A DNA stretch of 33,398 nucleotides, from the UHGV virus genome UHGV-0115916. One strand, given 5' to 3'. This document shows, piece by piece, positions 2,471 to 3,483 of the stretch; the stretch's first letter is position 1, and every line of letters starts with the position of its first letter. Both the position numbers and the translations under genes were made by a program. The DNA is from a virus. Below the pieces are notes generated by a model. The model saw only the letters and a program-made list of their open reading frames with translations. It was not told the origin of the DNA and did not search any database.

Positions 2471-3049
2471 TTATCCTTTCTTTAGTTTAAAGTGTCCTTG
2501 CATACTACTTACAATAGTGATAATTCCCGTTTCTGCTTCCTTATAGAAATCATAAACTATTTTTCTCTTCTTAGTTTCACGTACTCCTACCACGCGTTTA
2601 GTTTTGGTCTTAGTATCCTTTTTAGTAGTATCGATTAGATATTTTTTACCGTTCTCAACTACTACTTTATACCTACCTTTTTCTAAACCGCTTTTTAGTT
2701 GTGGTATGTTTCCTTGTTTAGATAAACGTGCTGAACTAGTCGGAACAAATTTCTTTAGGGGATCTGGATGTACAATAACGTTATAAAGGTATTCAGCCTG
2801 AATATCCTTAATCATGATTGTACATTTAACACTAGTACCCACTTTCTTATAAAAGTAAAGTACTGCATTATTAGTAAAAGGTACTGGCCCTTTATCGATA
2901 GCCGCTGACATATCCGATTGTATTTTCTTTGCTAGTTGGCGTGTTCTTGTGATTAGTTCATTCTGGAATTCATTTCCGTATAACTTACCCTGCTGATTAA
3001 TGTAACCCTTTGCAGAGGATAACCCGGTAACCTGTGTTTTGATTTTCAT
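2471..3049 (-). CDS. Hypothetical protein (basic, Lys-rich C-terminal half)
   Basis: 192-aa ORF packed tightly in the minus-strand operon; no motif recognised. Confidence 0.5.
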
Positions 3050-3483
3050 CTTAGAGCCTCTATTAGTACCTTTATAATATTGAATAACTTTAATGCTTCG
3101 GTATCGCTTGCTGGTAGACGTGCTTTAGTTAGGATTGCTTTATTAAGATTATTTGGTAATAGTCCTGTAGTCGCTATCAATGCAGTTTCTACTATGCTTG
3201 CTTGGTTAGCCGTAGGAAAACACCATAGAATGTACTTTCTGTAGTCCTCCCCTGCTTCAATTAGAGAATTTACGGTTTTACTACTACTGGTGTACTCTTT
3301 CCAGTTTGATTGTTTTGTACTGGCCTTTAGTTTCTTAATATCTTTAACGCCTTTGTAGATCTGCTTCATGCCGATATACCACGTACCGTTATCTAACTGC
3401 ATCAAGTAAACGAAAGCGGCGTACTGTCCAGATTCAATATCTTTAATATCCCACGTATCAGGATCGTAAATTTCCCATTCCAT
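3046..3483 (-). CDS. Hypothetical protein with GIY-YIG-like N-terminal motif (possible SegE-like endonuclease)
   Basis: 145 aa; [17 protein letters not shown] resembles GIY-(about 10 aa)-YIG spacing with NG..YIG; downstream catalytic residues not confidently identified. Confidence 0.4.

Follow-up and report, generated by a model that had tools for sequence, protein, structure and literature searches.

A conserved domain-only SegE-class GIY-YIG gene in the lysis and neck cassette of a temperate siphovirus-type element

In the 33,398-nucleotide virus genome UHGV-0115916 (this whole stretch of DNA is called the window below), a minus-strand gene beside the endolysin gene had been described in an earlier note, made from the letters alone, as a possible GIY-YIG-type endonuclease remnant. 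Here we report that this gene is intact and encodes a 145-residue GIY-YIG protein of the SegE class, that related loci carry it at the same place, and that it evolves under purifying selection. We assign a probability of about 0.6 to the reading that the gene product is an intact, catalytic-domain-only nuclease of the SegE class, fixed and vertically inherited in a late lysis and neck cassette, and that the gene is a domesticated descendant of a Seg-type homing endonuclease gene.

Domain assignment, predicted fold, and candidate active site

The open reading frame starts with ATG, its frame is uninterrupted, and its extent and length are as the earlier note gave them; the peptide quoted there corresponds to residues 24–40 (coordinates of this and the other features are in Table 1). 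When the protein was searched against Pfam, it matched PF19835 (SegE_GIY-YIG) with an E-value of 3.8e-17 and 63.1 bits, compared with a gathering score of 25, in an alignment that spanned residues 15–113 and profile positions 10–111 of 123. This match is far beyond chance and shows a GIY-YIG domain of the Seg, specifically the SegE, class. The PF19835 label is also precomputed on 46 of 46 homologue clusters, and the protein is matched by PHROG 7363 ("homing endonuclease," E = 4e-13) and by the generic "HEase" model of PADLOC (E = 1.5e-6). Besides GIY-YIG, Pfam shows no further domain in the protein; NCBIfam has no model that matches it, a phmmer search against PDB sequences gave a chance match to ZW10 only, and no second GIY-YIG copy was found within the window. 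The gene itself is routine annotation, with a curated Pfam family and homologues that are named "GIY-YIG nuclease family protein" by the Prokaryotic Genome Annotation Pipeline (PGAP). One more family, phrog_447, matches at E = 2.5e-13 and carries the label "NAD synthetase," which is contradicted by all other evidence and is probably a propagated misannotation.

The motif spacing that had drawn attention to this gene is real. FVY and YIG are separated by nine residues (FVY-x9-YIG), one residue or less from the canonical GIY-x10/11-YIG. Across 82 short forms of the family that are 22–79% identical to the query, Y26, Y36, G38, K40, Y64, S67, E99, and N114 are all invariant, and 28 orthologues share 21 invariant positions, including Y26, Y36, G38, K40, W61, Y64, S66–S68, E99, and N114.

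The catalytic Arg and Glu, which the earlier note could not place with confidence, have different outcomes. The Glu is predicted to be E99, accompanied by N114; hhalign pairs these two residues with the Glu and Asn of T4 SegE, and the spacing between them is 15 residues both here and in I-TevI (E75/N90). At the position of I-TevI Arg27, the 145-residue protein has no Arg. The residue nine positions after the Gly of YIG, K47 in this protein, is Lys in 24 and Arg in 4 of the 28 orthologues by an alignment-free count. At Gly+8, the offset of Arg27 in I-TevI (Gly19+8), Arg is the commonest single residue in the 82-member set (29/82), and hhalign sets a consensus Arg against Arg27. K47 is a candidate equivalent of the catalytic Arg, and the invariant K40 may be a family-specific addition beside it.

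K47 falls within a Lys-rich segment that occupies the place of helix alpha-1 of I-TevI. Seven Lys residues are found within residues 39–60, and ∼14–20 residues of this stretch have no counterpart in T4 SegE. The family-specific motif that follows, W61-x-x-Y64-x-S-S67, aligns with Y30-L-G-S33 of T4 SegE and H40-S-S of I-TevI. These residue equivalences rest on hhalign, spacing, and secondary structure rather than on strong sequence alignment or superposed coordinates. In the hhalign comparison, T4 SegE aligned over 82 columns with a probability of 95.6% and an E-value of 1.1e-8, with FVY, YIG, Y-x-x-S, Glu, and Asn placed in register. The profile comparison with T4 SegE and I-TevI worked only once profile A1 was broadened to A5, as the narrow profile A1 was uninformative (probability of 3% against T4 SegE and 0.2% against I-TevI). 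The 82-sequence profile, when run against PDB sequences, gave a marginal I-TevI match only (E = 0.78).

The predicted structure has the GIY-YIG fold, a three-stranded sheet with helices. The model shows a beta-beta-alpha-beta-alpha core followed by one C-terminal helix, with strands at residues 23–30 and 35–41 and helices at residues 92–106 and 127–144; at residues 42–68 the model contains no helix, with high predicted local distance difference test (pLDDT) values. Its best matches among predicted viral structures are "SegE-like GIY-YIG domain-containing" proteins, and the two best of these (357 and 271 amino acids) superpose on the whole query with a template-modeling (TM) score of 0.79. Since the superposition covers the whole query, all 145 residues, including the C-terminal helix, are predicted to be the counterpart of the N-terminal module in longer proteins that resemble homing endonucleases. 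The C-terminal helix is a possible oligomerization or packing element. The protein ends 31 residues past N114, with this single helix and without a C-terminal sequence-recognizing DNA-binding region (NUMOD, helix-turn-helix (HTH), or similar). The profile search, the structure prediction, and the alignment with T4 Seg proteins, which the earlier note had proposed as checks, all lead to a SegE-like GIY-YIG domain.

Conservation, selection, and related loci

A search of 5.8 billion proteins gave the 46 homologue clusters, which are 42–98% identical and, obvious partial entries excepted, constant in length at 140–153 amino acids. Their sources are Escherichia, Klebsiella, Citrobacter, Enterobacter, Raoultella, Edwardsiella, Buttiauxella, Cedecea, and Pluralibacter. 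When 1.84 billion representatives were searched exhaustively with a profile, 692 relatives emerged; of the 148 that scored best, ∼75 have 130–160 amino acids and ∼24 have 250–400. In a final profile search that gave 1,739 clusters, the best 120 are all 134–161 amino acids long. In the SegE-like family, proteins that consist of the catalytic domain alone are in the majority, and short and long forms both have F24, Y26, Y36, G38, K40, W61, Y64, S67, S68, E99, and N114.

Some near relatives join the same core to N-terminal DUF723-like zinc-ribbon regions or to C-terminal HTH-like regions, and such fusions are what would be expected of a working catalytic module. A further such fusion is P0073 (432 amino acids), in which a SegE-like GIY-YIG domain at residues 13–123 is followed by a C-terminal T4 endonuclease VII dimerization domain (PF09124, E = 6e-14); the two readings are a junction-resolving nuclease that is a natural chimera, and a gene 49 into which a homing endonuclease gene has been fused.

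Distant domain-only relatives in marine T4-like contigs are found in DNA-metabolism clusters beside nrdA/nrdB and RNase H, so the placement in a lysis cassette is specific to the lineage of the window. The sampled distant short relatives have no p192 homologue beside them (p192 is the 192-residue neighbour of the GIY-YIG protein in the window). The SegE-like genes of these contigs (134–141 amino acids; L022:5001-5426, L025:5001-5411, and L028:5001-5405) occupy fixed sites downstream of nrdB or near RNase H, and one exact SegE-like protein of this type is indexed in 75 contig-collection blocks. They look like conserved phage genes rather than sporadic insertions.

We compared the window with 17 loci from about nine lineages: E. 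coli and E. fergusonii (L001–L004 and L014–L017), Klebsiella-type (L005–L008), Pseudocitrobacter faecalis (L013), Mangrovibacter (L018), and metagenomic contigs (L019–L021). When a one-genome-per-species collection was scanned with p192, it returned the single P. faecalis locus and was too sparse for presence or absence to be judged, so these were taken instead from complete E. coli genomes and exact-protein contig look-ups. The module is carried by 27 of 5,426 complete E. coli genomes. In 17/17 loci the GIY-YIG gene is directly upstream of a p192 homologue, and no empty endolysin/p192 junction was found in this limited sample. The copy in P. faecalis (strain DSM 27453) is 97% identical to that of the window. 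Sequence identity of the GIY-YIG protein tracks that of its neighbours: it is 79% against L001, where the neighbours have 63–87%, and 44% against L005, where they have 29–75%, with no similarity peak around the gene.

The most divergent loci, L018–L021, differ in the orientation of the lysozyme (endolysin) gene, which in these adjoins the GIY-YIG gene on the same strand, with 2 nucleotides between the genes as called. From this arrangement it follows that the ancestral order was DUF2730, endolysin, GIY-YIG, p192, p105/p106, and 3TM holin. In the window, L001–L008, and L013–L017, the lysozyme gene is inverted, a clean single-gene inversion within the lysis cassette.

The sole unsaturated pair, the window and L013, gives a dN/dS of 0.12 (Nei-Gojobori; dN 0.012, dS 0.094), and more distant pairs have pN of 0.13–0.44 and pS of 0.68–0.92. 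In the E. coli prophage remnants L016 and L017, a frameshift splits the GIY-YIG gene, and the tail and holin genes are also fragmented. The copy in the window, unlike these two, is an intact, full-length gene under purifying selection.

Neighbouring genes and the rest of the element

The neighbour that the earlier note had taken for an endolysin gene is indeed a phage lysozyme gene, in divergent orientation to the GIY-YIG gene (Table 1). This lysozyme also weakly matches the model of the Bartonella gene transfer agent endolysin BgtA (NF058676, E = 3e-5). The 37 bp between the two start codons are so few that the promoter of each gene must lie within the coding region of the other. For the GIY-YIG-to-holin unit, a candidate promoter is at 3571-3544, within the lysozyme gene. 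Positions 3479–3525 of the window form a near-perfect mirror with 23-nucleotide arms that are 78% complementary and with AGG-N8-ATG on either side, and the size and layout of the intergenic region are kept in L001 and L013–L015. The two genes may share it as an operator, or it may have arisen incidentally when the lysozyme gene was inverted.

Table 1. Coordinates of the GIY-YIG gene, its parts, and other features discussed in the text (positions of the window unless a locus is named)
Feature	Position	Strand	Evidence or remark
GIY-YIG gene, domain-only SegE-class nuclease, 145 aa	3046..3483	-	
GIY-YIG motif, residues 24-40 (F24 V25 Y26 ... Y36 I37 G38 M39 K40)	3364..3414	-	
Lys-rich segment, residues 40-58, in place of I-TevI helix alpha-1	3310..3366	-	includes K47 (3343-3345); putative DNA-contact surface
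Family-specific motif W61-x-x-Y64-x-S-S67	3283..3303	-	W61 in 81/82; Y64 and S67 invariant
E99 codon, predicted metal-binding catalytic Glu	3187..3189	-	I-TevI E75 equivalent; invariant 82/82; on helix 92-106
N114 codon, predicted I-TevI N90 equivalent	3142..3144	-	invariant 82/82
C-terminal amphipathic helix, residues 127-144	3052..3105	-	model; also in long SegE-like phage proteins
AT-rich, near-palindromic intergenic region, 37 bp	3484..3520		between divergent GIY-YIG and lysozyme starts; mirrored AGG-N8-ATG
Endolysin (phage lysozyme)	3521..3973	+	PF00959 E=6.6e-9; phrog_13211/phrog_7 (endolysin and tail-lysozyme families)
Bidirectional intrinsic-terminator-like hairpin	3976..3998		closes structural operon and lysozyme gene
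p192, 192 aa, HK97 gp10-family-like fold, probable neck/tail-completion protein	2471..3049	-	ATG overlaps GIY-YIG stop (ATGA)
p106, 106 aa, conserved operon member	2147..2467	-	
3TM-type holin, 97 aa, final operon gene	1857..2150	-	PF11351 E=4.8e-5, 24.3 bits vs cutoff 24.8
DNA methyltransferase, near element end	50-763	-	phrog_3820 E 5e-106
Large serine integrase	31450-33348		
Colinear endolysin in related loci	L018:4124-4576, L019:4112-4567, L020:4112-4567		

The terminator-like hairpin is the closing element of the structural operon as well as of the lysozyme gene, so that the genes from GIY-YIG to holin form a separate transcription unit. Within this unit, p192 has no Pfam or PADLOC match. 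We also considered whether p192 is the detached DNA-binding domain of a split Seg gene; this was ruled out by its gp10-like fold, by the lack of Pfam and PADLOC matches, and by the 24-nucleotide gap, with no overlap, that separates the two genes in L005–L008. The holin assignment agrees with that of the E. coli orthologue in L015, which PGAP calls "3TM-type holin," and PF11351 is also weakly matched in L020 and L021. The lysis genes are of uncommon types: in addition to this 3TM "gene-transfer-agent-type" holin, whose PF11351 match is just under threshold, there is a DUF2730-like protein at 3987-4262 on the minus strand, with an N-terminal hydrophobic stretch and coiled-coil-type matches that include a weak one to XhlA. 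No obvious spanin genes were seen.

The element in the window encodes the small and large terminase subunits (TerS and TerL), portal, a head-plus-protease-type head protein, major tail, tape-measure, and J-like tail-tip proteins, and a large serine integrase. It is a temperate siphovirus-type element of a lineage of Enterobacteriaceae prophages that has no sequenced phage representative. Neither a megablast search with positions 1800–5000 of the window nor a tblastn search with p192 gave a match in 50,697 phage records, and full-length identity of the capsid protein to any phage in the collection does not exceed 29%.

Several other features of the element and its relatives were observed. Prophages at L014:5975-7431, L015:5378-6593, and L016:5210-5881 are integrated at ybhA or yegD, where a truncated host-gene pseudogene remains; in the ybhA cases the prophage edge also has an intact "pyridoxal phosphatase" gene. 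This pattern points to site-specific insertion into protein-coding genes, in which the end of the gene is replaced, and fits the large serine integrase of the window. The minus-strand open reading frame at 13877-16903 (1,008 amino acids) begins with a major-tail-protein domain (phrog_158), which is followed by long C-terminal regions that resemble tail fibres, and one just downstream at 13352-13810 on the same strand (152 amino acids) also matches phrog_158; the pair looks like a decorated major tail protein and a short paralogue. The "major head protein" at 17646-19496 (minus strand, 616 amino acids) matches the head-plus-protease fusion families phrog_617 and phrog_4523. Among the annotated open reading frames between portal and head, whose genes overlap, no separate protease or scaffold gene was identified, which suggests an all-in-one prohead protein. 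A 241-residue HNH endonuclease at 25897-26622 (minus strand), which matches several PHROG HNH families and lies a few kilobases from the terminase genes, is a second, unrelated nuclease of the element and is possibly associated with the terminase.

Role, origin, and comparison with known systems

We infer that the protein is a Mg2+-dependent DNA endonuclease that would use Y26/Y36, E99, N114, and, where the canonical Arg would stand, K47; the family-specific K40, Y64, and S67 would also take part. It would probably contact DNA through its own Lys-rich segment at residues 40–58, possibly as an oligomer, and such binding would imply low sequence specificity or structure specificity. Nicking or cutting would take place late in infection, alongside the rest of the cassette. 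Its probable ancestor is a Seg-type homing endonuclease gene, once free-standing, that came to rest among essential late genes and was probably retained through a benefit to the phage, possibly the cutting of competing or host DNA or the processing of DNA before packaging and lysis. The proposal that the protein is a domesticated nuclease with a dedicated late job, either clearing host or branched DNA before packaging and holin-triggered lysis or acting with the co-translated gp10-like neck protein, is one to which we give a rather low probability.

The protein might still be a selfish, active minimal homing endonuclease that, in related phages without the gene, makes its cut at the endolysin/p192 junction or close to it and spreads together with its flanks through recombinational repair when phages co-infect a cell or infect a lysogen; its constant presence would then reflect successful fixation and continued homing into a wider pool of relatives. 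The type member of the SegE class is an active free-standing homing endonuclease, the gene, like Seg and Mob genes, is placed in an intergenic space with conserved late genes on either side, and distant short relatives in T4-like contigs lie beside nrdA and nrdB, adjacent to genes that are listed as insertion and target sites of homing endonucleases in T4 (PMC2988022). We nevertheless consider homing unlikely, as each of the 17 loci with p192 has the gene and none an empty site, divergence follows that of the neighbours down to 44% identity, no sequence-specific DNA-binding module is recognizable, and the GC content of the gene (0.377) matches that of the window (0.368). Somewhat less probable again is the reading that the GIY-YIG fold has lost catalysis and been exapted, for instance to bind DNA or to act in assembly or regulation of the co-translated gp10-like neck protein or in the timing of lysis. 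Such a role would fit the replacement of the canonical Arg by Lys and of helix alpha-1 by a basic loop, the lack of a DNA-binding tail, the tight translational coupling through ATGA, and the invariable co-occurrence with p192, whose fold is that of a virion neck protein. It is made less likely because the invariance falls on active-site residues: Y26, Y36, E99, and N114 do not vary across 82 proteins of ∼25% identity, a pattern that would be difficult to account for if the protein had no catalytic activity. In addition, relatives fuse the same core to DNA-binding-like modules, the sampled distant short relatives have no adjoining p192 homologue, and in L005–L008 the two genes do not overlap.

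The methyltransferase gene near the end of the element raises the question of whether the nuclease is half of a restriction-modification-like or self/non-self pair that degrades unmethylated host or competitor DNA and spares the DNA of the phage itself. The methyltransferase is 65–97% identical in L013 and L018–L021, but in L001–L004 it is a 64-amino acid in-frame deletion remnant that keeps residues 1–63 and 210–236 (L001:10387-10645), and it was not found in L005–L008 and L014–L017. The two genes are also in separate transcription units with variable cargo between them, and PADLOC gives only its generic HEase match. We regard such a pair as very improbable and have rejected it, since loci in which the methyltransferase is deleted or was not found still have the nuclease. 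The lowest probability of all goes to the view closest to the earlier note, that of a degenerate, truncated Seg-like remnant on its way to loss, kept for promoter or translational-coupling signals. A length of 145 amino acids compared with 205 for T4 SegE, a stop codon that overlaps the start of the next gene, and the finding that embedded regulatory signals help seg genes to be kept in T4 (PMC2988022) would all be in keeping with it. Against this view are the low dN/dS, constant length, invariant signature residues, and fixed synteny, and the domain-only form is the commonest architecture of the family. True decay looks different, as the frameshifts in L016 and L017 show, and no residue of a DNA-binding domain is left downstream, where the next open reading frame is the unrelated gp10-like gene. 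Thus, the assignment of the domain to the Seg class stands, and in comparison with Seg and I-TevI enzymes a C-terminal DNA-binding region is indeed lacking, but the description of the gene as degenerate or truncated does not.

A short SegE-like gene need not be a broken one, as the domain-only form is dominant and conserved in the family. The gene has been fixed in the cassette between endolysin and holin over a span in which synonymous sites have become saturated, which is not expected of a selfish homing endonuclease and suggests domestication. If the nuclease does have a dedicated late job, the domain-only SegE-like family of ∼1,700 members, including the copies adjacent to nrdAB, would be a functional DNA-processing class rather than a selfish or decaying one. 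Y26, Y36, K40, K47, Y64, S67, E99, and N114 are concrete targets for mutagenesis. If the protein is an autonomous nuclease, this compact GIY-YIG module may also be of engineering interest and provide a handle on mini-nucleases in phage biology.

Among known systems, T4 SegE is a free-standing homing endonuclease that is listed as experimentally active (PMC2988022), and it belongs to the same catalytic-domain family, with the same Y/Y/G/Y-x-x-S/E/N pattern. SegE-type proteins have 205–357 amino acids and a C-terminal DNA-binding region that the window protein lacks, whereas the Lys-rich insertion of ∼14–20 residues in the window protein is absent from T4 SegE. In long SegE-like proteins such as that of phage Bp7, it is the N-terminal part that superposes on all 145 residues. 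Like Seg genes, the gene in the window stands between conserved phage genes. T4 SegE and related free-standing homing endonucleases belong to lytic T4-like myoviruses; the window gene is found in temperate siphovirus-like prophages, where it is fixed and vertically inherited and no sporadic distribution was seen. The catalytic domain of I-TevI (PDB 1LN0/1MK0) carries Arg27 on a helix, whereas the window protein has a basic stretch there that forms no helix in the model, with Lys at roughly that offset. I-TevI also has a 75-residue linker with a zinc finger and a helix-turn-helix DNA-binding domain (PMC2988022), and the window protein has neither.

T4 endonuclease II (EndoII, DenA; PDB 2WSH) is a 136-residue domain-only GIY-YIG enzyme that makes nicks and cuts in host DNA. 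Membership in the EndoII family was ruled out by an hhalign probability of 2%, with the GIY-YIG hairpin alone aligned (the sequence used for EndoII was checked with that of 2WSH). The canonical Arg is present in EndoII (KNLRKR), whereas the window protein has Lys. EndoII is encoded by an early gene, and base modification protects the DNA of its own phage. PD-T4-3 (PDB 9U75), a GIY-YIG anti-phage restriction nuclease for 5-hydroxymethylcytosine DNA, has 248 amino acids and an additional domain and gives no sequence-level match; the window gene lies inside a late lysis and neck operon and not in the variable cargo region. Our literature searches (GIY-YIG with lysis cassette, domain-only GIY-YIG, and SegE-like/PF19835) found no paper that describes the domain-only family. 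The same domain-only architecture and signature residues are present in proteins of Pectobacterium phage Arno18 (159 amino acids), Stenotrophomonas phage IME-SM1 (134 amino acids), and marine T4-like contigs. These short SegE-like proteins of other phages are only ∼25–35% identical to the window protein, and their genes have an nrdA/B and RNase H context, in contrast to the lysis cassette found here.

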